Shown: positions 21,098-61,170 of the stretch, piece by piece
Position numbering within the stretch: position 1 is the stretch's first letter
How the letters are laid out: every line of letters starts with the position of its first letter
The notes under the pieces: generated by a model
Seen by the model: the letters and a program-made list of their open reading frames with translations, nothing else
The model's database searches: none
What the model was told of the DNA's origin: nothing
Program-made: the position numbers and the translations under genes
NCBI GenBank assembly: GCA_963664405.1
Contig: OY761158.1
Span: forward strand, 899,020 to 963,019
Origin: Thermoanaerobaculia bacterium
GTDB taxonomy: Bacteria > Acidobacteriota > Thermoanaerobaculia > Multivoradales > Multivoraceae
Direction: 5' to 3'
Length of the DNA stretch: 64,000 nt

Positions 21098-22264
21098 ATG
21101 GATGGGCTGAAGCGAAGACTCAGGATGGGCATGGTCGGCGGCGGGCGTGATGCCTTTATCGGCGCCGTCCATCGCATGGCCGCGGGTCTCGACGGGCTGA
21201 TCACCCTGACCTGCGGCGCCTTCAGCTCAGAGGCCGCGAAGTCGAAAGACTCGGGCCGCGAGCTGTTCGTGGCAGAGGGCCGCTGCTACGGCTCTTGGCA
21301 GGAGATGCTCGATCGTGAAGCCGCTCTTCCCGACGACCTCCGTATGGATTTCGTTTCGATCGTCACTCCGAACTTTCTCCACTACCCCATCGCGATGGCG
21401 GCGCTGGAGCATGGGTTCCCAGTGGTCTGCGACAAGCCGATGACGATGGATGTCACCGAAGCCTTCGCTCTCGCTCGGCAAGTCGAGTCCACCGGTCTCC
21501 CCTTCTGCCTGACTCACAACTACACCGGCTATCCGATGGTCAAGGAGGCCAAGCACCGGGTCTCCCAGGGTAGCCTCGGCAAGATCCGAAAAATCGTCGT
21601 CGAGTATCCCCAGGGCTGGCTTGCCGGCAGGCTCGAAGCCACCGGCCAGAAGCAGGCCGACTGGCGAACCGACCCCGCTCGAGCCGGTGCGAGCTGCTGC
21701 ATGGGCGACATCGGCACCCACGCCGAGAATCTCGCTGAGTACGTGACCGGCTGCGAGATCGAATCGCTATGCGCCGACCTCACGACTTTCGTCGACGGCC
21801 GTCCCCTCGACGATGACGGCAACGTACTCCTGCGCTTTCGCGGCGGCGCTCGTGGGGTACTGCACGCCAGCCAGATCTCGATCGACGAAGAGAACGACTT
21901 GCGGTTGCGCGTTTATGGCGAATCAGGGGGCCTCGAGTGGCGGCAAGAAGAGCCGAACACGCTGATCCTCAAGTGGCCCGACCGGCCACGAGAGATCCTC
22001 CGCACCGGCGGCCCGACCCTCTCAGAGGCGGCAGCCTCCGCAACCCGTCTGCCGATGGGCCATCCGGAAGGATTCATCGAGGCCTTCGCGAATCTCTACC
22101 GCGGCTTCGCCTTTGCGGTCGAGGGTCGTCTTCGCGGTGAGCAGCCGCCGGCCGCCAGCCTCGACTTTCCAGGAGTCGGTGACGGCCTGCGCGGGATGCT
22201 CTTCATCCAGGCCGTGGTCGAAAGTAGCAAGAGCCAGACCAAGTGGACCCCACTCATCTCCTGA
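21098..22264 (+). CDS. Gfo/Idh/MocA-family NAD(P)-dependent oxidoreductase
   Basis: MGMVGGGRDAFIGAVH... is a Rossmann N-terminus and the C-terminal fold is typical. The start is either 21098 or the internal ATG at about 21125. Confidence 0.85.
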   Translation: MDGLKRRLRMGMVGGGRDAFIGAVHRMAAGLDGLITLTCGAFSSEAAKSKDSGRELFVAEGRCYGSWQEMLDREAALPDDLRMDFVSIVTPNFLHYPIAMAALEHGFPVVCDKPMTMDVTEAFALARQVESTGLPFCLTHNYTGYPMVKEAKHRVSQGSLGKIRKIVVEYPQGWLAGRLEATGQKQADWRTDPARAGASCCMGDIGTHAENLAEYVTGCEIESLCADLTTFVDGRPLDDDGNVLLRFRGGARGVLHASQISIDEENDLRLRVYGESGGLEWRQEEPNTLILKWPDRPREILRTGGPTLSEAAASATRLPMGHPEGFIEAFANLYRGFAFAVEGRLRGEQPPAASLDFPGVGDGLRGMLFIQAVVESSKSQTKWTPLIS

Positions 22265-23302: not shown

Positions 23303-25444
23303 GTGCGGCGTAAGCGAATCTTCTGGCCGATGGTTCTGCTACTGACTCAATGGCAATCGATCAGCTTGGCTCAATCCGCAGAGGAAGAACGAGCGCCGAG
23401 CTTTAGTGAGGCCCAGTCCGCCGCCGGAAAAGTCGCATATAGGAAACACTGTGCCTCCTGTCACAGGGCAAAGCTGGAAGGCTTCCAACTCGCGCCGGCT
23501 CTGGTTGAGAAGCGTTTCGATCAGTCTTGGCGCGGCAAATCCGCTGACATCCTGCAATTTCACATACGTCGCATGCCTCCCGAGCCGGCGGGAGAGCCCG
23601 GAAGCCTGAGCGACGAGACCTATGCGAATATCCTGGCCTACATTCTCCTTTCCAACGGCCTCGAAGCAGGGGGCGATGCTCTGCCCTCGGACTCATCTGC
23701 TCTTGCCGACCTGACCATACCGAGGTTGCCGGGAGTGGAGCTCGATCTAGGCGCGCCGGTCGTCGCGGCGGGCGAGTCCCAGCTACTGAAAGACCTGCCA
23801 ACGCTCACCAGTGAAGAGCTGCGCGACCCAACGCCCGAGGACTGGCTGCATTGGGGAAGAACTCTCGATGGGCACAGCTACAGTCCGCTGAAGCAGATCA
23901 ACCGTGGAAACGTGAAAGATCTGAAGCTGGCCTGGCGAGCGCCTCTTCGCTTCGGCAGCAATACTCCGGCTCCAGTGGTTCATCGAGGAGTGATGTTCCT
24001 TCACACACCTCCGGACACCGTGCTGGCGATGGATGCCACGGACGGCCGCGTGCTGTGGCGCTATCAGCGTAAAGGCATAGATCAGCCGACCAAGAAGAGG
24101 GGCGTCGCTCTCTACGGCGACATGGTGCTCGTGCCCACCTCCGACTTGCATGTGGTTGCCCTGAGCGCAAAGACCGGTAAACCGATCTGGGACCACACCC
24201 TCGACACAAGAGCACCAGACACCATGCGCCGCGGCTTTCACCTCAGAAGCGCCCCGCTGATAGCCAAAGACAAGGCCATCATCGGGGTCACGGTTTATGC
24301 ACCCAAGGGCGGCTTCATCCTCGCTCTGGACGTCAATTCGGGAAAAGAGGTGTGGCGGTTCAACACCATCGCCAGGCCGGGCGAGCCGGGGGAAAACAGT
24401 TGGAACGGCCTACCCCTGGAAAGGCGTAAAGGTGGGTCCGTTTGGCACCAGGCTACCTATGATGCGGAGCTGAACCTCGTCTACTTCGGTATCGCGCCGA
24501 CTTACGACACGGAGCCCCTCCTGATACCGATAGAGAAGGAGGGCATCAACAACGACGCGCTCTACACCAATTGCACCGTCGCCCTCGACGCCGATACCGG
24601 TGAGCTGATCTGGCACTATCAACACATGGCAAACGACCAGTGGGACCTGGATTGGGTCTTCGAGCGTCAGATCGCAAGCCTTAGCGTCGACGGCGAGCTC
24701 CGCAAGGTGGTAATGAACGTCGGCAAGATGGGGATCCTCGATGCTCTGGATGCAGCGACCGGCGAGTACCTATTCTCGGTCGACAGCGGGACGCAGAACG
24801 TAATTACCGCTATCGACCCTGAAACCGGCGCCAAAACCATCGACCCCGAGAAGGTGCCCAATTCGAAGCGAGGATCGCTGATCTGCCCGAGCGCTGTCGG
24901 CGCCAGAAGCTGGCCGCCGACTTCCTACAGCCCAAGGACGAAACTGCTGTACGTGCCCATCACCGAAGCCTGTTTGAACATGGGACCGACAGGACAAGGG
25001 GGCCGGCTACTCAGTACCGGTGTAGATCTGTCTCTGGCAACGCACCCGGATGCCAGTGACGGAATGGTAGGGCGCCTCCAGGCCATCGACCTTGTGAGCC
25101 ATGAATTGGGCTGGACCCACGATCAGCTCACTCCGCTTTCGACCGGCCTATTGACCACCGCCGGCGGGTTGCTCTTCTCCGGCGATATCGATCCCTCGTT
25201 GAAGGCTTTCGATGACGAGAGTGGTGAGCTGCTCTGGCAGGTCGAGCTCGACGACGCGCCCAGTTCGACCCTCGTAACGTACAGCGTTGACGACAAGCAA
25301 TACATCGCTGTCGTGGTGGGCCTGACAAATAATCATATCCGAGACATAACCAGCTCCTACCTAAAGTGGAGCAAGAGCATCGATACGCCGAGGGATGCCC
25401 CACCCAAAGGAGGGGCCGCCGTCTGGACATTCTCATTGGAATGA
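23303..25444 (+). CDS. PQQ-dependent dehydrogenase (beta-propeller quinoprotein) with an N-terminal c-type cytochrome domain (CASCH)
   Basis: GTG start. Signal peptide, then heme motif CASCH with downstream Met (IRRMPPEP), then PQQ propeller W-motif repeats. The stop overlaps the xylA ATG (ATGA). Confidence 0.75.
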   Translation: MRRKRIFWPMVLLLTQWQSISLAQSAEEERAPSFSEAQSAAGKVAYRKHCASCHRAKLEGFQLAPALVEKRFDQSWRGKSADILQFHIRRMPPEPAGEPGSLSDETYANILAYILLSNGLEAGGDALPSDSSALADLTIPRLPGVELDLGAPVVAAGESQLLKDLPTLTSEELRDPTPEDWLHWGRTLDGHSYSPLKQINRGNVKDLKLAWRAPLRFGSNTPAPVVHRGVMFLHTPPDTVLAMDATDGRVLWRYQRKGIDQPTKKRGVALYGDMVLVPTSDLHVVALSAKTGKPIWDHTLDTRAPDTMRRGFHLRSAPLIAKDKAIIGVTVYAPKGGFILALDVNSGKEVWRFNTIARPGEPGENSWNGLPLERRKGGSVWHQATYDAELNLVYFGIAPTYDTEPLLIPIEKEGINNDALYTNCTVALDADTGELIWHYQHMANDQWDLDWVFERQIASLSVDGELRKVVMNVGKMGILDALDAATGEYLFSVDSGTQNVITAIDPETGAKTIDPEKVPNSKRGSLICPSAVGARSWPPTSYSPRTKLLYVPITEACLNMGPTGQGGRLLSTGVDLSLATHPDASDGMVGRLQAIDLVSHELGWTHDQLTPLSTGLLTTAGGLLFSGDIDPSLKAFDDESGELLWQVELDDAPSSTLVTYSVDDKQYIAVVVGLTNNHIRDITSSYLKWSKSIDTPRDAPPKGGAAVWTFSLE

Positions 25445-32987: not shown

Positions 32988-34021
32988 GCGCGGTTGTCAA
33001 GAGAACGCTCGGCAATCTTCTGCTTATGGGCCTGGCCCTGGGGATTGCGACACTCCTTGGAGAGTTGGGGCTTCGTGTGTTTCTGCCGCAGAAAACCATG
33101 TACCCCCGCTATGTCGACTCGCCCGACTATCCGATCGCTCTTCCAGCGAATAGCAAGATCGTCCACGCCCAGGGGGGGCGCTGGCGCTTCGAGTACAACA
33201 CCAATCGAGAGGGTCACCGTGGCACCTACCTCTCCGTATCCGACACTGACCACACGACTCGCGTGGTCACGCTCGGCGACTCGTTCACCTTCGGCGAGGG
33301 GGTCAACGACGACGACGTCTATCCGCACGTACTCGCGGAGCTTTTGGGGTCCGGCTATAGCGTCATAAACGGCGGCATGAGTGGCTGGGGTATCGACTCT
33401 CAGATCAAGTGGTTCTTCAAGGAGGGCGCGCCCTACCGGCCGCTCATCGTGACCCTCCAGTTTTCCGGCAACGACCCCTCTGATTTCTACGGAGTGACGA
33501 AGATCGAGGACGGGCAGTTCACCTTTCATCCTAATCCAAACATCAGACCCTCCTGGCAGATGAGGATCTCCAGGTCTTACCTCCTGCAGAAGTCTCACAT
33601 CTATGCAGGCGTCCGCGGTCTTTACGTTCGCTCCATCGTTCGAGAGGAAGGCGACACCCGCCGCGACGAGCTCAAGCCCGAACCCCGTCCAGGCGAGGAG
33701 AAGTACGCACGAATGCTGCAGCTGTTCGCCGACACCCTCCGCCGGCAGGGCTCAATGCTGCTCTTCCTCAGCGTGACTCACGGGCACGCCGACGAGTCCT
33801 ACCACTACGACCTGAATCACTTCCCGACGATCAGAGATGCGACGACCCGGCTTGATGCCGCAGGACGGATGCGCTTTGTGGAGCTACCCAGCGCTGAGAT
33901 GCGGCAGTATCCGGGCAGCCCCGAGGGCCATAAATGGTCCGCTCCGCATCATCGTCTCGCAGCCCATGCGATCGCCCAAGAGATTCGAACTATCCACGAT
34001 CCTGGCTCGGGCGACGACTGA
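32984..34021 (+). CDS. SGNH/GDSL-family hydrolase with an N-terminal membrane anchor
   Basis: GTG start overlaps the SDR stop (GTGA). A TM helix is followed by VVTLGDSFTFGEGV, the GDS(L) block I. Confidence 0.65.
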   Translation: MSAVVKRTLGNLLLMGLALGIATLLGELGLRVFLPQKTMYPRYVDSPDYPIALPANSKIVHAQGGRWRFEYNTNREGHRGTYLSVSDTDHTTRVVTLGDSFTFGEGVNDDDVYPHVLAELLGSGYSVINGGMSGWGIDSQIKWFFKEGAPYRPLIVTLQFSGNDPSDFYGVTKIEDGQFTFHPNPNIRPSWQMRISRSYLLQKSHIYAGVRGLYVRSIVREEGDTRRDELKPEPRPGEEKYARMLQLFADTLRRQGSMLLFLSVTHGHADESYHYDLNHFPTIRDATTRLDAAGRMRFVELPSAEMRQYPGSPEGHKWSAPHHRLAAHAIAQEIRTIHDPGSGDD

Positions 34022-34038
34022 GATCTCCCGCTCGCAGC

Positions 34039-35292
34039 TTACGCCCCGAACTTGGCCAGCTTGCCGGCGTTGGCCATCGCCAGCGGCAGAAGGTCGAGGT
34101 GACGCAGCGAGCCGAGACTCCCTCCACGGCAATCCATTTCGGTAAAGCTGCGCCCGTCCGGGCGGACAAGACGGCTCCATAACAACACCGGAAGCGGGTG
34201 CCAGGAATGGGCCCGCAACGGCACTGGTGTCGAGTGGTCGCCGGTGATCACGACGACGTCGGGCTCGCCTTCGAGGAGCTCGGGGAGGATGGCGTCGAAG
34301 TCTTCCACCTGCTCCGTCTTCTTTGCAGAATCGCCGTCCTCGCCATAGCTGTCGGTCTTCTTCACGTGAAAGTAGAGAAACTCGTAATCGCGACTATGAG
34401 CACGGTAGGAAGCCAGCTTTGCCGGCGTCCGCTCGCCGGTGCCCTCGAGATCGATCGGGGGGCACTCCATACCCACCAGCCGTGACACTCCGCGGTACAT
34501 CGGGTAAGCGGCGATCGAGCCTGCTCGAAGGCGGCAGATGTCACCAATCCGCGGCAGCTCAGGTCGTCTGCCAATGCCTCGCAAAAGCACCCCGTTGACC
34601 GCGGGCTCCGCCTCTCGCGCCACCGGCACATCGCTCAGCACCTCGGCGCAAAGCTCGGAAAGGCGCTCGAGGACGCTCGCCGTCCGACTGTCGGATTGAT
34701 CGCCGCTCTGAGCCTTCGCGGCTCGACGCGCCAGCCCGACCCGGCCCGGATCGGTGTCACCGACTTCCCCCCCGAGTCCCTCGCCGCGCAGCCGCACCAC
34801 GAACCTGTATTCGGACTCTGTATGGAGCTCGACCGCGACACCCTCGACTTCTGAGATCTCCGCCTTCAGGGCGGTTATCAGTTCCTCATTCAGCGCGGTC
34901 GAGATCCGCCCTGCCCGGCGATCCGCAACAAGGCCATCGTTGTCAAAAGTGGCAAAGTTGCCCCGAGCCGCCACCTCCTCACCGCCAAGATCGAGATCGA
35001 TCCCGAGCGCCGAGAGCACTCCTCGGCCGACGTCGTAGACCAGCGGGTCGTAACCGAAGAGGGAAAGGTGACCAGGCCCGCTACCGGGTGTGATCCCTGG
35101 AGCAACTACAGTCGAAAGCCCGAGAGACGCCTCTCGCGACAGCGCATCGAGATTGGGTGTATCAGCCGCCGAGAGCGGCGTTTCCCCATCGACGGGAACG
35201 TCACCGATGCCATCGAGAACCACCAAGAGGATTCTGGTGTCGCTGGCGATGCTGAGTCTCTGCAGCAGAGCGAGGGGATACGGCAACACCAT
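34039..35292 (-). CDS. apgM: Cofactor-independent phosphoglycerate mutase, archaeal type (ApgM)
   Basis: 417 aa. LLVVLDGIGD..., ...TPNLDAL..., ...ITGDHSTP... match the ApgM/metalloenzyme superfamily. Confidence 0.8.
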   Translation of the reverse strand: MVLPYPLALLQRLSIASDTRILLVVLDGIGDVPVDGETPLSAADTPNLDALSREASLGLSTVVAPGITPGSGPGHLSLFGYDPLVYDVGRGVLSALGIDLDLGGEEVAARGNFATFDNDGLVADRRAGRISTALNEELITALKAEISEVEGVAVELHTESEYRFVVRLRGEGLGGEVGDTDPGRVGLARRAAKAQSGDQSDSRTASVLERLSELCAEVLSDVPVAREAEPAVNGVLLRGIGRRPELPRIGDICRLRAGSIAAYPMYRGVSRLVGMECPPIDLEGTGERTPAKLASYRAHSRDYEFLYFHVKKTDSYGEDGDSAKKTEQVEDFDAILPELLEGEPDVVVITGDHSTPVPLRAHSWHPLPVLLWSRLVRPDGRSFTEMDCRGGSLGSLRHLDLLPLAMANAGKLAKFGA

Positions 35293-35317: not shown

Positions 35318-35830
35318 CTAACTGACCGGCCCGCAGCAGATGCGGAGGTCGCCGGGGTTCTTATGGTCGTAGCGCCACAGCAGCTCCCCCCTCAGCGCGT
35401 CCAGGGCGAAGAGACGATTGTGCGAAGAGGTGGCGTAGAGGATGCCGTCATATACGACCGGCGAGGTTTCGAGCTGAATCGCCACGCCCGTCGGCAGCAT
35501 CCACGCCAAACGTAAGCTACTCAGGCTCTCGGCGTCGAGCGCCTCGATCGGAGAGTGGCGCCAGGCCGCGAAGTTACCGCCGAAGTGGAGCCAGGCAGCG
35601 GCCGTCGGCGAGTCGGCGAGCAGCTCGTCGGTCACCGGCCCCATCCCTCTCCCGGCGGGCGCGTCGCGGGTCCAGTGGCTGGCTGCAGGACCCACGCCGG
35701 GATTCCCCTCGCCCTGCTGGGCCGGCAGCAGATTTCCCGAGAAGGCAGCGAGGCACAAGAGAAGAGCGAGTGCCCGCAACGAGCTGGTCAATCCGAGTCG
35801 ACCCGTCGGCCGGAAAAGCTGAACTTCTGA
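35318..35830 (-). pseudogene. N-terminal about 170-aa remnant of a PQQ-dependent alcohol dehydrogenase, truncated right after the CC ring motif
   Basis: Signal peptide then ...AAAWLHFGGNFAAWRHSPIEALDAESLSSLRLAWMLPTGV...ETSPVVYDGILYATSSHNRLFALDALRGELLWRYDH...RICCGPVS* parallels the N-terminus of the intact PQQ-ADH at 58694..60358 but stops 26 nt before the apgM start. Confidence 0.65.
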
Positions 35831-37374
35831 CTGCCGAGCTCCACTTCGCCTGAAAGCTCGGAGGACTCGAAGCCACCCCTTCCCTGCACTGCCAGCCGGC
35901 CGAACGAAGAAGCCAGGATGGCGCTGAAGCCCGCATCTCCGCCCGCGACTTCTATCAGCCGACCTTCGATTAGCTCTCCATTGATCGGGATGTACCACAT
36001 CCCCTCTCCCTCGGACGGAAAGTGCAGCACCGTCTCTATCACTTCGTCCTCGTTCTGATCTCGCTCCCATACCCGAACGGCAAAGACTTCTCCGGGATGA
36101 TCCCGCCTGAGCTCGGCGGAGATGAGCTTCAGTCTGTCCTCCGCGCTGAGAGGGCGCAGCCCCTCTTTCACGGTGTAGTCGACGAAGCCGATCATCATCT
36201 CGTCGAAGGACTCATTGCCGAAGGTCACGTCGACACTCGGGTCCGGGTTGTCCGGGTTGTCCGGGTTGCCGGCCGAGTTGTCGAAGTGGGCAAGGCAATC
36301 GATGCGAGTACCGGCAGGAAGATCGAGGGGCGCCTCGAGCTCGTAGACGGTCTGCCAGTTGAAGTCGTAGCCCGGCACCCGCAGAAGGGTCTCGCGCCTG
36401 CCGTCCGGGTAGATGGCCGTGTAGGTGAAGTCCCTGCCCCGATAGTGCATATGAGGAAAGAGAGAGTAGAGCACGCTGTCCTGCCGGAAGGTGAAAGACG
36501 AGCGCACCGCGTGATTCTCGGCGCCGGAGGGAATCTTGAATCCGGTATTCTGCACCCACAAGTTGACCAGCTCTTTCTCGGGCTCGCCTTCGAGGAAGTG
36601 CAGACCGATACGCGTCTGGTCGCTACTGGCAGCGTCGGTCGGGTGGTAGTGCATGTCCGCAACGATCCTCGAGCCCTTCTTGAGCAGTCGACCCGTTCCT
36701 TCAGGGAAAGTCATCGGAACCATCCCTGCGGCCCACGCACCGAGCCAACCGGTCGGCGATTGCTGGCCGTCTTCGAGCACGAAGATGATCACGTGGTGCA
36801 CGACTCGGCGGTTCGAAGGCAGAATCTCGATCGACTGCACCCAACGGTCCTCGGGCAGCTCATACGTCGCGGACATGTTCTTGAAGACATCAGGACCGCC
36901 CCCCGCGAGCTCGACGGCGTCAAAGGCCACCTCGAGGTCGGGTTCACCCAGGCGCCAGCCGTCGCCGAAAGCGGGGACCGTCGGCATGTCCGCAGGATCG
37001 CCCGCCGGCGCACCCTGCTTGACCCAACGTACGAGAATCTCTTTCTCCCGGTCGCTCAGCCGCCGATCATTCGAGAACTTGCCGTAGGACGCATCGGCGT
37101 GCCACGGAGGCATGGTTCCCTCACTCACGGCTCGCCGAATGGACTTCGCCCACGGACGAACCTCGTCGTAGCTGCGAAGGGCCATCGGGGCGATGTCGTC
37201 GGGTCGGTGACAGGTCACGCACTTTTAGTGCAGAACGGGCGCGACATCTCTGCTGAAGCTGATCTTCTTGGGCAGGTCCGCCACGTCGGTGGCGGCGGGA
37301 CGGCTGGCGGCAAGAATCGGAGCCGCGGTCACCGTAGCGGCGACGAGCAACGTGACGGAAGAAACGATCTTCAT
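35788..37374 (-). pseudogene. Secreted PSCyt1-type cytochrome c domain protein with a C-terminal copper type II monooxygenase-like (PHM/DBH-like) region; an in-frame TAA stop sits inside the conserved heme-motif region
   Basis: ATG at 37374 gives MKIVSSVTLLVAATVTAAPILAASRPAATDVADLPKKISFSRDVAPVLH*KCVTCHRPDD.... The stop (37225-37227, minus strand) interrupts the conserved F-x-RDV-x-P-I/V-L...CxxCH block. The track ORF 35788..37218 begins at the GTG of that CxxCH motif. Confidence 0.65.
36241..36267 (-). repeat. Perfect 9-bp tandem repeat x3 (AACCCGGAC on the coding strand) encoding NPDNPDNPD
   Basis: gtccgggttgtccgggttgtccgggtt on the plus strand. It lies inside the monooxygenase-like domain of the gene above. 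Confidence 0.6.
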
Positions 37375-37443
37375 GGAGTCTCCTTGGGCATCCTCTGTCT
37401 AGGACGAGAAAAGTCCGATTTGGTTTCACCCGAGATCGTACTT

Positions 37444-40066: not shown

Positions 40067-41125
40067 TCACTGCGGGGAGTGATGTGTGGCCACTCTTCCG
40101 CCGCATCTGGAGCCCTCGAGGAGAGTGAAGAAACGCACGATCTGCTCTTCTGCCCAGTGCCTGGTCGTTCCGGGCGTAGGGCCGTGGACGAACCCGGCAT
40201 GCCCGCCGCGAGGTGTGAAACGCGGTACCAACCAAGGCGACCGCTCGCAAATCTGGTGAGGCAGCGTAGAACCGGGGTTGAAGGGGTCATCTTCCGCCGC
40301 TATCAGTACTGTGGGAACGCGCACGCCGTCGAGAAACTGACCACAGCCCACTTTGCTCCAATAGTCGAAAGCATCATCGAAGCCGTGGAGTGCCGCGGTC
40401 GCCCAGGTGTCGAAGTCGGCGAAGGTGCGACTCGCAGCGATCTTTTCGCGATCGAGCAGTCCCGGATATTGGCGCGCCTTCTCCAGCGCCTTGGGGATGA
40501 GAGTGCGCAGGAACCTACGCACATAAAGACCGCCGAGTGCGCCATCAATGGCAGGACCACTCACTCGCAGGTCGAAGGGAGGAGAGACCACAGCCGCGGC
40601 GGCAACCTGCGCCGGCACCTGCTCCTCTCTCTCGCCGAGCCACTTAGCGAGTACGTTGCCACCCAGCGAGAAACCCGCGATATAGAGCGGCACGCCCGGA
40701 GCGCGGCGGCGAAGCTCGTCCTGGACAAAGTCGAGATCGGTGGTCTCCCCCGAGTGATAGAGCCGGGGAGCAAGGTTGATGTCTCCGTCGCAGGAGCGGA
40801 ACTCGAGAGCAGCCACGCTCCAGCCGAGAGCAACAAAGGCATGGCGCAAACCGACTATGTAATTAGACGAAGCGCACCCTTCGAGGCCGTGCAGCAGGAG
40901 CACGAGGGGCCTCTCTTGGCGTCCGTCATGGAGCCACAGGCTCAGCCGATCGCCGTCGGGAGTCTGCCAGTGCTCGCGGCGCCCTCCGGGAGGGGGCTGG
41001 CGGCGAAAGAAGGGGCTCCAGATCGTCTGCGCGTGGCGGCCGCGCAACCACCACGGCGGACGGAATGGAAAGCGTGAGAGCTCTTCGACCGCGGCGGCCT
41101 TATCGAAGGCGAAGCCAGTGGGCAA
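40067..41125 (-). CDS. YheT-like alpha/beta hydrolase
   Basis: ...PLVLLLHGLEGCASSNYI...YIAGFSLGGNVLAKWL... is the nucleophile elbow, with the C-terminal His region. Confidence 0.8.
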   Translation of the reverse strand: MPTGFAFDKAAAVEELSRFPFRPPWWLRGRHAQTIWSPFFRRQPPPGGRREHWQTPDGDRLSLWLHDGRQERPLVLLLHGLEGCASSNYIVGLRHAFVALGWSVAALEFRSCDGDINLAPRLYHSGETTDLDFVQDELRRRAPGVPLYIAGFSLGGNVLAKWLGEREEQVPAQVAAAAVVSPPFDLRVSGPAIDGALGGLYVRRFLRTLIPKALEKARQYPGLLDREKIAASRTFADFDTWATAALHGFDDAFDYWSKVGCGQFLDGVRVPTVLIAAEDDPFNPGSTLPHQICERSPWLVPRFTPRGGHAGFVHGPTPGTTRHWAEEQIVRFFTLLEGSRCGGRVATHHSPQ

Positions 41126-41128
41126 GTT

Positions 41129-41737
41129 TCAGACTCGATTGCGATAGAGCGCGGGATCCACGACCTCGGCCATCGCTCGCCGGTCTAGCCCGCCGCCCAG
41201 AAACTCATCAAGACGACGGGCGTGAGGCTCCGGATCCGCGAGAACTTCCCTGTAGCTGACGAAGAGCGTGTCGAGATGGCGCCGATACCCCACCATGAAC
41301 CTCACGTGGCGCAGGTGCTCGACATAGACCTCGCGCATCTTCTCGTCTTCGGGGCCACTCTCCTCTTCGCGGTGCTCCAGCATCTTCTGCTGCGAGCGCA
41401 ACACTTCGCTCAGATCGCGCTCCATGAACACGACCTTGTAGTTGTTGTCGGCCGGAAGATCCTTGAGCAGGAAAGAGATGACCTTGATCGCTTTGCCTCG
41501 CGATCGGCGCAGCCATCTGCGGTCTTCCATCTTCGCAAGGTCCTTGACCCGCTCGTCTTCGTAGTAGCCCCTGGGGTTGTCGTCGTCGGCGATGCGTACG
41601 CCGTCAACGGTGACCTCGAGCCCCCCTGCCTCGAGCATCTTCATCGCCATCGAGGTGCCGGAGCGGGGCAAGCCCGAAACGACGACGACCGGTCGCCCAA
41701 AACGGATTCTTCTGAGCAGCTGGGAGAGTCCGACCAT
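41129..41737 (-). CDS. Sulfotransferase-family protein (P-loop PAPS-binding 5'-PSB motif)
   Basis: VVVSGLPRSGTSMAMKML is the 5'-phosphosulfate binding motif. 202 aa. Co-oriented with the upstream hydrolase (4-nt gap). Confidence 0.7.
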   Translation of the reverse strand: MVGLSQLLRRIRFGRPVVVVSGLPRSGTSMAMKMLEAGGLEVTVDGVRIADDDNPRGYYEDERVKDLAKMEDRRWLRRSRGKAIKVISFLLKDLPADNNYKVVFMERDLSEVLRSQQKMLEHREEESGPEDEKMREVYVEHLRHVRFMVGYRRHLDTLFVSYREVLADPEPHARRLDEFLGGGLDRRAMAEVVDPALYRNRV

Positions 41738-49634: not shown

Positions 49635-51485
49635 ATGCGCTCCAGGCCGCTGACATTGTTTCTCTGTACTGCGCTCTTTGCGACATACGCGGTTGATTCT
49701 GCCAATGCTGCGCAGCAGGCTGCGGCACCCGCCGGCGACGACTGGCCGATGTATCGCGGCGATCTGGCCGGCACCGGCTACTCGGCCCTGGCCAAGATCA
49801 CCCCCGCCAACGTTTCGAGCCTCACGCGGGTGTGGACCTACTCTCTCGAACGCACCAATGGGGGTGGCGGAGGCAACCTCCAGGCGACGCCCATCGTTGT
49901 CGGAAACGTAATGTACCTCCCCGCAGCAGACCGCGTGGTCGCGCTCGAGCCCGCGACAGGGAGCGAGATCTGGCGACATCTCGTCACTGACGGCAGCCCC
50001 TCTCGCCGCGGTGTCGCCTACTGGCCGGGCGAGGGCCGAACGCCCCCACGCATCATCTTCACCGCCGGACGCCGACTGCTCGCTCTCGATGCCGCGACCG
50101 GCGCACCGATCTCGAGCTTCGGGCACAACGGCGAAGTCGACATGGTGGTGCCCTACAACTCGGTTCCTCTCGTCCATCGCAATGTCGTCGTCGTCGGCGC
50201 CAACACTCCACCTGGAACGAGCGGCGGCATCGGCAATGCAAGAGCCTACAACGCACGCACCGGCGCCAAGTTGTGGGAATTCAGCTCGGTGCCACTGCCC
50301 GGTTCCGTGGGTCATGACACCTGGGAAGGCATGAGCTGGAAGGACCGACTCGGCGCCAACGCGTGGCCGTTCTATTTCACCGTCGATGATGAGCGCGGGC
50401 TCCTCTACATACCGCTCGCCTCGCCCATCCCCGGCTACTACGGTGGCGACCGCAAGGGCGCCAATCTGTTCGGAAACTCCGTTGTCGCGGTAGACCTCCA
50501 AACAGGTGAGTACAAGTGGCACTTCCAGACCATCCATCACGACCTCTGGGATGCTGATCCCCCCGCGCCTCCTGTCCTGTTCGACATCAAAAGAAGTGAT
50601 CGAACGATCCCGGCACTCGGCCTGACCACCAAGTCGGGCTACGTCTACATTCTCGACCGTGCCACCGGAGAGCCGATCTTCGGGGTCGAAGAGCGCGCGG
50701 TTCCCGCAAGCGACGTCCCGGGCGAGGCTGCGTATCCGACTCAGCCATTCCCCACGAAGCCGCTGCCGGTGGGTCGTGTGAGCTACGAGCCTGAGGACCT
50801 GGTGACCGCCGCAGACACGAGCGCGGAGCACGCCGCCGCCTGCGCCGAGCTACTCGCGACCCTCGGTGAAGTCCACAACGCCGGGCCCTTCACCCCCTGG
50901 GCCTATCGCACCGACGGCGCTCCCGCCAAGACCACGTTGAATTTTCCCGGAGGCCTCGGCGGACACAACTGGGGCGGCGGCGCCTTCGACCCATCCTCCG
51001 GCTATCTCTTCGTCGTCAACCAGGACGTCGGTGCGCTGGGCTGGATGGTCGACTCCGACGACCCGACGCGAGGGTCGTATCGGCGCGTCGGCCCAAGGCC
51101 CGCAAGCTTTGAAGTTCAAGTCGGGGGAGTCCGAATGCCATGCCAGAAACCACCCTGGGGCCGACTCACAGCGATCGACTCCTCGACCGGGGACATCGCC
51201 TGGCAGCGCCCTCTCGGCATTACCGAGCAGCTCCCTCCAGACCGCCAGAACACCGGACGGCCCGTACGAGCCGCAGCCATCGTCACCGCCAGTAGCCTGC
51301 TCTTCGTCGCTTCGACCGACGACAACCGCTTCCGAGCCTTCGAAGCGACAACGGGCAAGGAGTTGTGGGAAGACCGACTCCCCCGACACGGAAATGCCAA
51401 CCCCATGACCTATCGGGGCAACGACGGCAAGCAGTACATCGCTCTGGTCGCGCTCGATACGTTACTCGTCTACGGGCTGCCGTAG
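49635..51485 (+). CDS. PQQ-dependent beta-propeller dehydrogenase (glucose/aldose dehydrogenase-type quinoprotein), secreted
   Basis: Signal peptide. [14 protein letters not shown]... and repeated W-motifs ([38 protein letters not shown]) mark the PQQ propeller. Confidence 0.8.
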
Positions 51486-51664: not shown

Positions 51665-53119
51665 ATGACCCGGATTGCAGAGATCGTCGTCGCAACGGCC
51701 AGGTCCTGGCCGCGGCGGAGCGCACGCGGATTGCGCGCGGCCGCCCTGTTGCCATTCCTCGGTAGCTTGGCGTGCGTCAGCGAGGCACCGCGAAAGGGCA
51801 AGCCCACTATCGTGATCGTCATCGCCGACGATCAGGGCTGGGGCGACCTCAGCCATCACGGCAACACCAACCTCGAGACACCGAACATCGATTCGTTGGC
51901 TCGAGACGGCGCCAGCTTCCGCCACTTCTTTGCCAGCGCGGTGTGCTCGCCGACGCGTGCCGAGCTCCTCACCGGCCGTTACCATCCGCGAGGCGGCGTA
52001 CGCGGGACCAGTGCGGGAGCCGAGCGATTGGATCTCGATGAACGTACTCTCGCCGAGACCTTCAAGCATGCCGGCTACGCGACCGGCGCCTTCGGCAAGT
52101 GGCACAACGGTAGCCAGCATCTCTACCATCCGAACGCGCGTGGATTCGACGAGTTCTACGGCTTCACCTCGGGCCACTGGGCGCTCTACTTCGATCCACC
52201 GCTGGATCACAACGGTCGAGCCGTCCGCGGGAGCGGCTTCATCATCGACGACCTCACCGATCATGCGCTGAGCTTCATCGAAGACAACGCCGCGAAGGGC
52301 GAGCCTTTCTTCCTCTATGTCCCGTACAACACGCCGCACTCGCCGATGCAGGTACCCGATCGCTTCTACGAGCGCTTCGCCGGCGCGGAATTGCCTCTCC
52401 GCCATCGCGACCCGGACAAAGAAGATCTCGAGCACACGCGCGCGGCAATGGCGATGGTAGAGAACATCGACTGGAACGTCGGCAGACTCCTCCACCGGCT
52501 CGACGAGCTCGGTCTGGGGGACGACACCCTCGTTCTCTATATGAGCGACAACGGTCCCAACGGCTGGCGCTGGAACGGTGGCATGAAGGGGCGCAAGGGC
52601 ACCCTCGACGAAGGAGGCCTGCGGGTTCCGGCCTTCGTGCGCTGGCCGGGGAAGATTGATGCAGGGCAGGAGGTTGAGCCGATCGCTGCCGCCATCGACC
52701 TGCTACCGACTCTCGCCGAGCTGGCTGGAGTCGAGGTTGTGGGTGACCGGCCCCTCGACGGCCGGAGCTTGGCGCCGCTTCTTGTCGGCGAGCGAGCGCA
52801 GGAGACGTGGCCGGACCGCGAGATAGCCAGCTTCCACCGTGGCGAGGTCACTCTTCGCACCCAGCGCTTCCGCCTCGACCCCGAGGGTCGCTTGTTCGAT
52901 CTGCAAGAGGATCCGGGTCAACGCGTCGACATCACCGACAAGCAACCGGCCGAGGCTCGACGGCTGCAAAGATTGGCGGAAGAGCTCTCCGCCGAGATGG
53001 CCGGAGAGCTCGGGCCGGTAGACGATCGACCGTTCCTTATCGGAGGAGACCGCGATACCTTGGAGACCTGCTCGAGCACCCGATGCGGCGGGCAGTGGTT
53101 TCGTCTTCAACTCTGGTGA
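51665..53119 (+). CDS. Arylsulfatase (formylglycine-dependent sulfatase)
   Basis: Start trimmed to MTRIAEIV. ...[14 protein letters not shown]...[15 protein letters not shown]... is the C-x-P-x-R FGly motif, followed by the GKWH block. Confidence 0.85.
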
Positions 53120-53153
53120 GCGCGTCCTTGGCACGAGCACACCGCTCTTCACC

Positions 53154-55178
53154 TTGATCTTGGCCTCTCTCGGCGCCTTTGGCCTACCAATCCCGGCAGC
53201 CGCGGCGGCTCTCTATTCTCTCTTTCTCGCAGCAACGGCAGTGACGGGTGCTCGTCTCCTACTGCGCCGGGGGGCGCCCGTGCTGGCGGTGTCGTTCGTG
53301 GCGCTGGTCGTATCTGGCTTCGGCAACGTCCTGCACTTTTTCGGTATGGAGACAACGCTCTTCATGTGGCTACTCCTCAGGGCGGTCTCGGACGCGGTGG
53401 CAGATCGATCGAAAGCAGCGGGGCTGGCGATGGGGCTGGCCTGCCTGTGCCGCTATGAAGGCTTCCTGTTCGCTGCAATTCTGATGGTTGCCATGGCAGT
53501 CCGGCGTCGTCGAGCCGCCTGGGGCGCGGCCGCTGCGGCTGTGCCCGTCGTCCTGCCCTGGCTCCTCTTCGCCAGGTTGTACTTCGGTTCTGTATTGCCA
53601 AGCACTCTCGCTGCCAAGGCCGGTGACGTAGGCTTCGGCGAGTACCTCCGGCGGTCTCTGCTCCTTCAGCTCGACGGTCTCCACCCACTGCGGCACTTCA
53701 CGCTCGGTCCTCGGTGGAGTGAGATCGTCGAGTGGGGGTGGCGCTGTTCCCGCTCCTACTTTGGCTCGCCTACGGTGTCATCGGCGCGCCGGTTCTGCAT
53801 CGCTGGCACCTCGTGCCGGCAAGCCTTCTGCTGACCCTGCTCGGCTTTCTTGCAGGGAGCGAAGCACCGTCGCCTCTGCCGTCTGGCGCGAAGCGGTTGG
53901 TTGGCGGGACACTGGCGCTGGCGGTGTGCGTATGGCTGCCTTCGGCGACGCGGGCGGAGAAGTCGTCCCTCGTTGACACCGGCTACTACGTGGGTCGGGT
54001 CAAGGCATACCGAGAGATGGCCGATTGGATCGTAGCCAACGATGCGGCGGATCTCGAGCTCCTCACCCTCGAGCCCGGTTATCTGTGCTTCCTGACTGGG
54101 AACCCGGCCATCGACCTCGGCGGGCTGGTGACTCCGGGGCTCCACTTCCATGATCCGCGAGATCGACGCAGTCGGGTCGTAGACGTGGTGGCAAGGCGAG
54201 AGCCGCCACTTGTGGTGACGAGTTTCGGGCATCCACCGGGTCTCGGCTTGCCGGGGTACATCATCGTGTACGAGTCGTTCCCTGGGCGGCAGCTCCTGAT
54301 GAGGGAGTCGGTCTATCGCTCTCGCTTCGACGCTCTGGCGGCCCGTCGCCTCCGGCCCAGCGAGCCGCCCCGGGGGGGGGCTGCGGCACCCCTTCGCGTT
54401 GGATATGGCTCTGTCGACCACACCGGCGGCGGTGCCGTGGGAGGGCGATGAGACGCCACCATTCGTAATCGACTTCGACGAGATCTCGTTCGAGCTCGGC
54501 ACTGCGGATAGGCAGGGAGCCGTGGCTCAGCTCGTAGTTGAGGGAGTGACGGTCCTGCAGACCCGTCCGCCCGGGCGAAGATCGGGGGGCCAGCGAGGTA
54601 TGGAAGGCTCGATGCAGACGATCATCTGGCCAGTGTACCCATGGCAGGGGCGCAGTGCGGTGCTTCGATTCGTCGATGCCGCGGCCGCGCCACATTGGCT
54701 CGACGCAGGGCGAGTTCGTTCACTGCGTCACAGCAGGAGGCTTCTCTTCGATGGCTTCGAGGCAGACGGGTACTCCCAGCGCTGGGAGGAGGTGTTCGAC
54801 GGCGGTCCGTCGCCGCTGCGTGACCTCGCTCTCGTGCGGGGCCCTGGTTTCTTGTTATCGGGGTCGGCGGCGTCGAGCTTGGGGCGGGAAGGCGGGCAGA
54901 CACTCCGCAGCCTGCCGTTCGCGGTGAGCTCCGACTTTCTCTCGATGCTCGTTCTCGAGTCTGGGGCCGCGACCCGGATCACCCTGCGAGTAGCCGGCAG
55001 GAGAGTGCGATCCTTCCGTGGTCGCCGAGAGGTGCAGTCGCCGCGAGCGCTGACCTGGAATCTCACACCTTTTCTCGGGCGTACGGCCGTACTCTCGGTC
55101 GTCGATGGCGATCCGAGTGCTCAGCGGGGTGTCGTTGTCGACGAGATCGTGTTCTTCGATCGCGAATCGCCGGGCTGA
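53154..55178 (+). pseudogene. Polytopic membrane protein (GT-C-like hydrophobic core) with C-terminal beta-sandwich-like repeats, split over three ORFs by two frameshifts (about 53735 and at the G9 run 54372-54380)
   Basis: Track ORFs 53154..53834 (frame 0), 53732..54451 (frame 2) and 54399..55178 (frame 0) read as one continuous hydrophobic protein if the frames are repaired. A G9 homopolymer sits at the second junction. Confidence 0.45.
54372..54380. repeat. G9 homopolymer at a frameshift junction
   Basis: ccccgggggggggctgcgg, read directly. Confidence 0.7.
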
Positions 55179-58280: not shown

Positions 58281-58720
58281 CGGGGAAAATGATGGATATC
58301 ATTTCCCCCGACTAGTTGTTCTTTGGCGCCGAGGACGGCGCACTCAGGCGGTGCTTCCTATTCGCTCCGGGCAGCGGTCCGGTTTCCTTCCGCGCAGACT
58401 CCTCTAGGAAGCCTGGACCACAGGAGCTACGGGTGCGCCGTCCTCGGCGTCCTTCCCGAGAGCGGCTCCGCAGGAGCCGGTCGAGTTGACCGCCGTGGAG
58501 CTCGCGCCAGCGAGGTCACAAGAACAACAATGAGCCGGAGGAAATGATAGCCATCATTTCTGGAGGCGAAGCCCGAACGCTAGGAGAGTGTCCGAGTATT
58601 CGGCCAGAGCCGTTTCCCGGAGCGAGTAGGAAGCAACGCCCTAGTGCGCCGTCCTCGGCGCCAACAACAATGAGCCGGAGGAAATGATAGCCATCATTTC
58701 TGGAGGCGAAGCCCGAACAC
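58281..58720. repeat. Dense composite repeat array: three AAATGAT-N4-ATCATTT palindromes (58286-58307, 58541-58560, 58685-58704); a 55-bp inverted-repeat pair built on GGCGCCGAGGACGGCGCAC (58324-58380 versus 58605-58662); and a 57-bp direct repeat (58519-58576 and 58663-58720) that duplicates the last codons of the PQQ-ADH gene
   Basis: Read directly from the sequence. The modules match those at 9654-9815 and 21016-21062. The region lies between the convergent 3' ends of 56813..58279 and 58694..60358. Confidence 0.7.
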
Positions 58721-60358
58721 GAAGAGCGCGCTGCCGGCGGCGGCAGCTACGTACTGCTTACCTTCGACGGCATACGTGATCGGACAGCTGGCAATCGACC
58801 CGCCCAGAGTCGCCTTCCACAGCAGCTCACCCGTCTTCGCATCGAGGGCGTGGAAATAGCCCTCGCGGCCGCCGGCGAAAACGAGGTCGGAGGCCGTGCT
58901 CAAGACGCCACTCTGAGTGACATCGGTCATCTTGAATCGCCAACGCTGCTCGCCCGTTCGCGGATCGAGAGCCAGTACCGCACCGTTGGCGACGTCTTCG
59001 GTCCAGTTATTGATCAGTGGGCGACCCCTACCCGTCACGCCCGGCGCTCCGGGGTTCGGACTGGTCGGCGGACCACCCAAGAAGCGTTGACCGGGTCGGT
59101 ACTCGACCTCCACCGGTCGGAACACATGTCCGCAGTTCTCCCATGCAGAAACGTAGATCAGCTCGGTGTTGGGGCTGAACGAAGGAGAAAACCAATTCGT
59201 GCCTCCGGGAACGCAAGGGTAGGTCGTCGCTCCGAGGGGTTGAGGGGTCTCGATCGGTCGTCCCTTCTCGTCGAGCCCGCTAGCCCAGTTGACCTTGACG
59301 AAGGGCGTCCCCCTGATGAATTCGCCGGTGGCGCGGTCGAGCACATAAAAGAAGCCGTTGCGGTTTGCCCACAGCATGAGCTTGTCGCTGCCCACTCCGG
59401 TGACGTCTAGATCGACGAGCACAGGAACCTGGACCGCGTCATAGTCATAGTCATCGTTGGGAGTGAACTGGAAGTGCCACTCGAGCTCGCCGGTATCGGC
59501 GTCGAGCGCGACGACAGAGTCGGAGTAGAGGTTGTCGCCGGGTCGTTGGGCCGGATTCCAGTCCGGCCCCGGGTTGCCGATGCCCCAGTAAGTGAGGTTG
59601 AGCTCGGGGTCGTAGGAGCCGGTGACCCACACCGACGCACCACCATGCTCCCAGGCGTCGCCGCCGCCCTCCCAGGTCTCATGGCCAGGCTCCCCGGGCC
59701 CCGGGATGGTGTAGAAACGCCACACTTCATCCCCGCTCACGGCATCGTAGGCGGCAATGAACCCGCGGATTCCGTACTCGCCGCCGGCAACGCCGACGAC
59801 GACCTTGTCACCGATGACCAGGGGAGCCAGGGTCATCGCGTAGCCCAGACTGGGGTCGGCAACCGCGGTCTTCCAGATCGGTCGGCCGGAGATGGTGTCG
59901 ATCGCGATCAACTGCGCGTCGATCGTCGCCATGAACAGAGTCTCGCCGAGAATGGCGAGGCCCCGGTTCACCGAACCACAGCACGGTCTCGACTCGGAGG
60001 AAGGGACGTGCTCATACCTCCAAAAGGCACTTCCGAGCTTGGCGTCGAGAGCGATCACGGTGTTCGGCGCTTCGGTCAGATACATAACACCGTCGACCAC
60101 CAGCGGAGTGGTCTCGAACTTTTCCAACGACCGAGCCTGGAACACCCACTTCATTTCCAGCTCGCCAACGTTGTCCGGTGCGATCTGCCGTAACAGACTG
60201 TGGCGGGTACTCGCGTAATCGCCGGAATAGGTGAGCCAGTTGTGCGGCTCTTTCGCGGCTTCGAGCAGGCGTTTGGACGTCACCTGTGCGCTCAGGCTCT
60301 GAGCCGGCAGCATCAGCGAGAGAAGCAACAGGCCGGCACGACTCATGAGTCTGCGCAT
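58694..60358 (-). CDS. PQQ-dependent alcohol dehydrogenase (methanol/ethanol family, XoxF/ExaA-like)
   Basis: Start trimmed to MRRLMSRAGLLLLSL, a signal peptide. ...NWLTYSGDYASTRHSLL..., the CC ring (RPCCGSVNRG) and propeller W-motifs follow. The start overlaps the upstream cytochrome stop (TAATG). Confidence 0.85.
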   Translation of the reverse strand: MRRLMSRAGLLLLSLMLPAQSLSAQVTSKRLLEAAKEPHNWLTYSGDYASTRHSLLRQIAPDNVGELEMKWVFQARSLEKFETTPLVVDGVMYLTEAPNTVIALDAKLGSAFWRYEHVPSSESRPCCGSVNRGLAILGETLFMATIDAQLIAIDTISGRPIWKTAVADPSLGYAMTLAPLVIGDKVVVGVAGGEYGIRGFIAAYDAVSGDEVWRFYTIPGPGEPGHETWEGGGDAWEHGGASVWVTGSYDPELNLTYWGIGNPGPDWNPAQRPGDNLYSDSVVALDADTGELEWHFQFTPNDDYDYDAVQVPVLVDLDVTGVGSDKLMLWANRNGFFYVLDRATGEFIRGTPFVKVNWASGLDEKGRPIETPQPLGATTYPCVPGGTNWFSPSFSPNTELIYVSAWENCGHVFRPVEVEYRPGQRFLGGPPTSPNPGAPGVTGRGRPLINNWTEDVANGAVLALDPRTGEQRWRFKMTDVTQSGVLSTASDLVFAGGREGYFHALDAKTGELLWKATLGGSIASCPITYAVEGKQYVAAAAGSALFVFGLRLQK

Positions 60359-61170
60359 TAGCTCAACCCCTTCAAGGACAGTAGGTAGGCCAGCACGTCG
60401 GCTCTCTCTTCCGCCGTCAGGGTCTCTTCGTACGAAGGCATATCCGAGGAGGTGAGGATCGTGAGCTCGCGGAGAGTGACCTTTTCCAGCGAGACCAGAC
60501 GCTCGTGATCGTCGATGAGCTGGACGGTGAAGGTGTCTTCGTTGATGCGGCGACCGTTGATCACCGTCCCATCGCTCTTTACGACTCTCACCGGGCGGTT
60601 GATCGGTAGTGTCGAGCCTTCCGAACCGAGGATCGCTCGTTCGAGCTGAGCCGCGGTGCGAACGGAGCCTATGTTGCTCAGATCCGGCGCGGAGCGCGGC
60701 CCTCGACCGAAGACCCTGTGACAGCTTCCGCACTCGCCCTTGCCTTCGAAGAGGGCCTGACCCTGTCCGCCATCACCGAGCGAGATCGAGCCGAGATTGG
60801 CGGTCGTGATGTTGCGAACGTAGGCGACCAGAGCCGTGATCTCGGGGGCGGTGTACTCGGTCGGCGTCATCTGCGTTCCCGGAATTCCGTCACGAATATT
60901 GTTGCCAAGAAGAGCGTCGCTCGGAGAGTTCGGGAAGTCCCCGAGGCGAAGATTGACCTTGCGCTCCATGTCGCCGTTCTCGCCGTGGCAGGAAACACAG
61001 TGATTACTGTAGAGGTAGAACCCGTACTCGATGTCGGTCTGTTCGTAGCCACCCGCATCCTGGGCGCCGAGAGGAAGCCCTGCCATCACCACCATCGATG
61101 CAACTCCGACCGACGCCCGCTTGAACGATCCGTACCCGACCCGTACTATCCACTGCCATCGGTTCTTCAT
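60358..61170 (-). CDS. Diheme c-type cytochrome (CVSCH and CGSCH), likely electron acceptor of the downstream PQQ-ADH
   Basis: Start trimmed to MKNRWQWIV..., a signal peptide. Two CxxCH motifs. Translationally coupled to the PQQ-ADH. Confidence 0.8.
   Translation of the reverse strand: MKNRWQWIVRVGYGSFKRASVGVASMVVMAGLPLGAQDAGGYEQTDIEYGFYLYSNHCVSCHGENGDMERKVNLRLGDFPNSPSDALLGNNIRDGIPGTQMTPTEYTAPEITALVAYVRNITTANLGSISLGDGGQGQALFEGKGECGSCHRVFGRGPRSAPDLSNIGSVRTAAQLERAILGSEGSTLPINRPVRVVKSDGTVINGRRINEDTFTVQLIDDHERLVSLEKVTLRELTILTSSDMPSYEETLTAEERADVLAYLLSLKGLS

Follow-up and report, generated by a model that had tools for sequence, protein, structure and literature searches.

The minus-strand gene described here, which encodes a predicted fusion of a cytochrome c domain to a copper monooxygenase core, is most probably a recent and genuine nonsense pseudogene specific to one strain, a reading that we draw from comparison of its sequence with those of its relatives. 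It lies in a 64-kb window (the whole stretch of DNA that was analysed, 64,000 nucleotides), where the frame from ATG 37374 to the TGA at 35790..35788 holds one internal stop only, a TAA at 37227..37225, in place of a glutamine codon found in two sister strains. In the course of events that we propose, the codon for Gln50 would have gone from CAA to TAA by one C→T transition, seen on the plus strand as G→A at 37227, and translation would then end after 49 residues, comprising the signal peptide and about 25 mature residues. A restart at GTG 37218 or at ATG 37113 would give a product with neither an export signal nor an intact CxxCH, and because such a product would be expected to fail in maturation, no periplasmic haem protein would result, which is the ground for regarding the gene as a pseudogene. 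The gene would already have been dispensable in the lineage, with independent lesions accumulating across strains. Two points in this account are inferred, the correctness of the base call and the absence of any useful product.

One gene with a single in-frame stop

A sequence-only reading of the window had placed an in-frame TAA inside this minus-strand gene, and direct reading of the DNA together with its translation finds the stop where it was said to be. The minus-strand reading is MKIVSSVTLLVAATVTAAPILAASRPAATDVADLPKKISFSRDVAPVLH-TAA-KCVTCHRPDD…, the underlying DNA is ...AAGATCAGCTTCAGCAGAGATGTCGCGCCCGTTCTGCAC TAA AAG TGC GTG ACC TGT CAC CGA CCC... and the translation across the site is ...KISFSRDVAPVLH*KCVTCHRPDD. 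The stop had been described, correctly, as lying within the gene just before the haem-binding CVTCH; its spacing had been given as three codons, whereas the order TAA-AAG-TGC puts it two codons ahead of the first haem cysteine. The elements reported on either side were also recovered, namely a Shine-Dalgarno sequence (AAGGAG, 37385..37380), ATG 37374 and an N-terminus, MKIVSSVTLLVAATVTAAPILAAS, that is predicted to be signal-peptide-like for the upstream part, and for the downstream part a 476-aa ORF starting at the GTG of CVTCH, with the GTG at 37218. In the public record the downstream part is represented by a 441-aa product (P0001) called from ATG 37113. The positions of these features, and of those discussed further below, are collected in Table 1.

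Table 1. Positions in the window of the disrupted gene, its internal features and the adjoining deletion
Feature	Position	Strand	Remarks
Shine-Dalgarno sequence AAGGAG	37380..37385	-	5 nt ahead of ATG 37374; direct sequence reading
Whole disrupted gene	35788..37374	-	528 codons plus terminal TGA, from translation
5' ORF, 49 aa plus stop: signal peptide and start of haem domain	37225..37374	-	Public record P0146, a separate 49-aa protein
In-frame TAA, codon 50	37225..37227	-	CAA (Gln) in sister strains L068 and L069
CVTCH haem-binding motif	37207..37221	-	C52, C55 and H56 invariant in family
Downstream ORF, 476 aa from GTG 37218 (V of CVTCH)	35788..37218	-	ORF list
Segment bounded by TGCGGACATGC repeats (36994..36984, 36661..36651)	36651..36994	-	333 nt lost in L069
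Three perfect tandem copies of AACCCGGAC (NPDNPDNPD)	36241..36267	-	Two copies in sister strains and in all 32 aligned homologues
PQQ-dependent dehydrogenase remnant, first 157 codons	35318..35791	-	Pfam PQQ positions 1-87 of 595
Deletion junction, about 1,766 nt lost relative to L068, L069 and L071	35321..35323	-	Contig comparison

Over its full length, the 49-aa ORF ahead of the stop aligns with residues 1-50 of P0002, a homologue of 525 aa (E = 1e-7), and the two sides of the TAA are therefore parts of one gene. The other 527 codons are open and keep every residue that is invariant in the family. The sequence-only reading had allowed for two genuinely separate genes, and it can be imagined that the 49-aa peptide and the 441-476-aa product are such a pair, or that the downstream part acts alone in the cytoplasm; both a 49-aa and a 441-aa protein are called in the public record, and a GAGGG stands 4 nt before ATG 37113. 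Against this, every orthologue is a single gene, no relative is split at the site and the sister strains read straight through it, and the downstream product would be deprived of the signal peptide and of the first cysteine of CxxCH, or of the whole motif, signal peptide and motif both being family-invariant. We consider a functional split of this kind extremely improbable, and treat the locus as one disrupted gene.

Further into the gene, inside a conserved block, the 9-nt unit AACCCGGAC is repeated, and its third copy is private to the window gene (Table 1). In-frame expansion by slippage, confined to the window strain, would seem to be its origin.

The ancestral codon and the case for decoding

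The sister-strain contigs came to light when the 49-aa ORF and neighbouring window proteins were looked up by cluster. One of them, L068 (22 kb), has 97.3% DNA identity to the window over 11.7 kb spanning the gene, and for another, L069 (1.97 Mb), the identity is 97.4% and 96.0% in two blocks that span it. The two contigs come from different samples, and each has CAC-CAA-AAG at the place of CAC-TAA-AAG in the window, so that the window differs by one C→T transition from a glutamine codon; the strings CACTAAAAGTGC and CACCAAAAGTGC tell the two alleles at the site apart. Only one assembly carries the TAA. An exact DNA search of genome contigs, and of metagenome contigs with NNN at the codon, gave no match to the site, and no contig encoding the 441-aa product is on record.

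The alignment with orthologues that had been proposed in the sequence-only reading was carried out, and a sense codon occupies the column in 36/36 relatives at the fetched loci. The residues recorded there for the 36 family genes are Glu (9), Ala (6), Ser (5), Lys (5), Asp (4), Arg (3), Asn (2) and Thr (2). Each of the 32 aligned homologues is likewise a single uninterrupted gene. Synteny is conserved in two further loci, L008 and L066, where apgM (65% identical to that of the window) directly follows the gene and UvrD is nearby, which supports the orthology of these nearest relatives. The closest orthologue from a species representative, in a Thermoanaerobaculia MAG (L008, 6460-6475), is frameshifted within a run of G at the GGGPDVF motif, probably through an error of the MAG assembly.

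It was also suggested that the stop might be read through or recoded, so that a near-cognate or suppressor tRNA would insert, for example, glutamine at the TAA and the haem protein would be made at full length. The frame is indeed open on both sides of the TAA, which is all that the locus shares with known cases of programmed readthrough or stop reassignment, and near-cognate decoding as glutamine would restore the ancestral residue. The remaining evidence is against it. A stop was found at the column in 0/36 fetched-locus relatives, L068 and L069 included, and in 0/32 aligned proteins, so that it is conserved in no orthologue, and TAA serves as an ordinary terminator in the window, where apgM and four other long ORFs end in it, the alignment of apgM extending to the final residue of the orthologue. 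The check for other in-frame TAA codons that had been called for found none in the window in a sense frame with coding sequence on both sides, by a codon log-odds scan of every stop flanked on each side by 45 or more open codons; the scan is noisy, and the four sites that it flagged are the TGA gene boundaries at 22262, 26779 and 41129 and a TGA at 34852 antisense to apgM. No stimulatory structure is apparent, the RNA fold around the stop being no better than that of shuffled sequences (z = -0.36), and there is no tRNA gene in the 64-kb window that might act as a nearby suppressor. Among bacterial stops UAA is the least leaky, and both release factors recognise it. Given an unconserved stop, TAA terminators, an ordinary fold and no tRNA, programmed readthrough is very unlikely, and decoding of the TAA by any such route is in our estimation very improbable. 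The narrower proposal, that the TAA is bypassed at a useful level via tRNA-Gln (inserting Gln50) and that some full-length periplasmic haem–copper monooxygenase is made, is hardly credible; were it true, the strain would offer a natural bacterial example of UAA readthrough that is functional.

Sister-strain lesions, relaxed selection and the adjoining deletion

A nonsense pseudogene was one of three options left by the sequence-only reading, and it is the one favoured by the CAA of the sister strains and by three further lines of evidence: independent damage to the gene in L069, a relaxed dN/dS and an adjoining deletion. The L069 orthologue has no stop and has instead lost 333 nt (111 codons) in frame between 11-nt direct repeats, TGCGGACATGC, a deletion which removes residues ~131-241, including the invariant HH193/194. 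The deletion lies at L069 6918-6928, the equivalent of window 36651..36994, and leaves a product of 414 aa without the first copper subdomain.

The L068 gene carries -2 and +1 frameshifts, and these were considered as a third independent lesion and then rejected. Compared with the window and with L069 alike, its contig shows nine other +1 C indels, insertions that split several genes (the AMP-binding-like, aldehyde-dehydrogenase-like and phosphodiesterase-like genes), and the name of the record ('_2x_l') suggests 2x coverage. The frameshifts are thus probably low-coverage long-read errors, which leaves the L069 deletion as the only solid sister lesion.

Between the window and L069 the disrupted cytochrome c–PHM-like gene differs by 13 non-synonymous changes and 7 synonymous ones, giving a dN/dS of 0.58, a value which derives from 20 substitutions only and which is approached by two other neighbours, also at 0.4-0.5. 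In the same comparison dN/dS is 0.55 for the PQQ dehydrogenase remnant, 0.51 for the sulfotransferase-like gene and 0.41 for the hydrolase-like (abhydrolase) gene, and 0.12, 0.11, 0.10 and 0.06 for the phosphodiesterase-like gene, apgM, the aldehyde-dehydrogenase-like gene and the AMP-binding-like gene, respectively. The ratio of non-synonymous to synonymous changes in the disrupted gene differs from that of four constrained neighbours pooled (Fisher p = 2e-4), and shows no difference from the neutral expectation (p = 0.29). The gene thus looks dispensable in this lineage, and selection on it looks relaxed. Along the region dS is uneven, which suggests recombination.

The next gene on the same strand is also damaged in the window. 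The TTG start of the PQQ-dependent dehydrogenase remnant overlaps the TGA of the disrupted gene, and the remnant ends in a TAG that was created by the deletion, which removed codons 158-585 of the dehydrogenase together with a 138-aa cytochrome c gene and reaches to 26 nt before the start of apgM. In L069 and L071 the haem–copper gene is followed by separate genes for a 585-aa PQQ dehydrogenase and a 138-aa cytochrome c, the called start of the dehydrogenase in L069 overlapping the stop of the haem–copper gene, and in L068 one 680-aa product spans the two reading frames. A functional link of the whole family with PQQ dehydrogenases was considered and set aside, a PQQ-like gene being present in the flanks of only 3/67 fetched loci; the linkage is specific to the species group.

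The last of the three options was an error of base calling or consensus, by which the true codon would be CAA and the gene intact in the window strain. The TAA is separated by one substitution from the codon of the sister strains and is known from one assembly only, and because the rest of the ORF, with its 527 open codons and its invariant residues, is intact, the event must be very recent and is, by sequence alone, indistinguishable from one miscalled base. The assembly nevertheless looks accurate, as no indel separates the window from L069 over 6.9 kb, by which neither of the two assemblies seems error-prone, and the long genes of the window give full-length Pfam matches (e.g. PQQ 1-595 of 595). 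Moreover, the L069 lesion, the relaxed dN/dS and the 1.77-kb deletion alongside all raise the prior for a true mutation, which makes a mutation much likelier than a miscall at this site. We therefore rate a base-call error as unlikely, and continue to favour a genuine nonsense mutation.

Several other observations were made in the surroundings of the gene. Between 30115 and 35321 the window is mosaic with respect to L069 and L071, the identity being 97.4% upstream, 94.5% in apgM, 85-89% across SDR–UvrD and then 97.7%, which suggests a recombination tract with its edge at the deletion junction. Between SDR and apgM the window has ~1 kb (32988..34033, with a GDSL-lipase-like ORF) where L069 has 36 nt. 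The window also holds three full-length PQQ-dependent dehydrogenase genes in its 64 kb, at 23303..25444 (+), 49635..51485 (+) and 58694..60733 (-), one of which encodes an N-terminal cytochrome c domain; the first and the third of these three share 31-32% identity with the remnant at 35318..35791. At 40067..41737 (-) a sulfotransferase-like and an alpha/beta-hydrolase-like ORF share a frame and are set apart by a TGA (41129..41131) and one codon; the pair has the same layout in L069, where it is annotated as two genes, and this is probably mere adjacency. Lastly, at 53022..55178 (+) there are three overlapping ORFs in different frames and an antisense ORF, with an unusually high GC content at codon position 2, and none of the ORFs in this stretch has a Pfam match.

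The protein family and comparison with known systems

Behind its signal peptide the encoded protein consists of a cytochrome c domain, a PHM/DBH-like copper monooxygenase core and, at the C-terminus, a beta domain; it is accordingly modelled as a fusion of the first two of these domains, predicted to be periplasmic in the family. Both the CxxCH (C52-V-T-C55-H56) and the signal-peptide-like N-terminus are encoded, and in the window strain the TAA separates them. A homologue search of 5.8 billion proteins returned more than 5000 relatives, nearly all of 510-540 aa and uninterrupted, most of them unnamed or named 'mono/diheme cytochrome c family protein'. The closest relative in this search is 64% identical, the search having omitted the sister-strain products, which are broken too (127, 254 and 414 aa; at least 95% identical), though these are in the same collection. 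The family is spread over Acidobacteriota, Planctomycetota, Nitrospirales and other groups. No curated family covering the whole protein was found in Pfam or NCBIfam, an NCBIfam scan of the query giving no family match, and literature searches on bacterial PHM-like proteins or cytochrome c fusions found nothing relevant.

In an alignment of 33 sequences the invariant positions are C52, C55, H56, M88-P-P-W, HH193/194, H242, H244, H308, H310 and M393/394. At E <= 0.01, Pfam Cytochrome_CBB3 is matched by 31/33 members, Cu2_monoox_C by 21/33, Haem_bd by 13/33 and Cu2_monooxygen by 3/33. Searches of the PDB by sequence and by profile gave no meaningful match, and none of the profile matches came to E <= 1. 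The AlphaFold2 model (pLDDT 85.9, pTM 0.82) consists of a small helical N-terminal domain, a double beta-sandwich of ~300 residues and a C-terminal beta domain, and its 31 best Foldseek matches in the PDB are to PHM or DBH without exception (E values between 1e-11 and 2e-8, with a TM of about 0.6 on the target).

The likeness to PHM and DBH (PDB 1PHM, 4ZEL) thus resides in the central ~300 residues, which are predicted to adopt the same two-subdomain beta-sandwich (Foldseek E = 1e-11, probability 1.0). The family of the window gene differs in being bacterial and periplasmic and in having a cytochrome c domain at the N-terminus and an additional beta domain at the C-terminus, and it shares only about 15% sequence identity with PHM. 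The ligands of the two copper sites of PHM, which we take to be H107, H108 and H172 for CuH and H242, H244 and M314 for CuM, appear to be mirrored by HH193/194, H242/H244, H308-x-H310 and M393/394, an equivalence that comes from comparison of motifs and not from residue-level superposition. By analogy, the haem domain may supply electrons in place of ascorbate, the donor in the animal enzymes.

The sequence-only reading had labelled the protein as PSCyt1-type, after the planctomycete cytochrome c domain (PF07635), and here the likeness extends to a motif only. A F-x-x-D-V-x-P-I-L-x-x-x-C-x-x-C-H pattern by the signal peptide is common to both, whereas PSCyt1 is matched at E <= 0.01 in 0/33 aligned family members, and the query has no PF07635 match in Pfam even at E <= 0.1. 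The PSCyt2 and PSD1 partner domains are absent, and the haem domain of the query instead scores with Cytochrome_CBB3 (16.2 bits) and Haem_bd (22.3 bits), both under the 27-bit cut-off.

As an event, the disruption is of a kind already known, a routine pseudogene of little importance in itself. Its practical consequence is that the locus is better annotated as one disrupted gene, where the public record has a 49-aa and a 441-aa protein as separate entries. Its wider value lies in a natural loss-of-function series among strains that are ~97% identical, made up of a nonsense codon, an in-frame domain deletion and the deletion of a neighbouring operon, and touching a gene that looks dispensable in this lineage from a widespread and uncharacterised family of cytochrome c–fused PHM-like copper monooxygenases. 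Compared with ordinary bacterial nonsense pseudogenes there is nothing notable to set it apart: one premature stop lies one mutation from the sense codon of close relatives whose orthologues are intact at the site, dN/dS is relaxed, the gene is independently damaged in another strain and neighbouring genes have been lost. The window ORF is otherwise undamaged, from which the nonsense event would appear to be very young.
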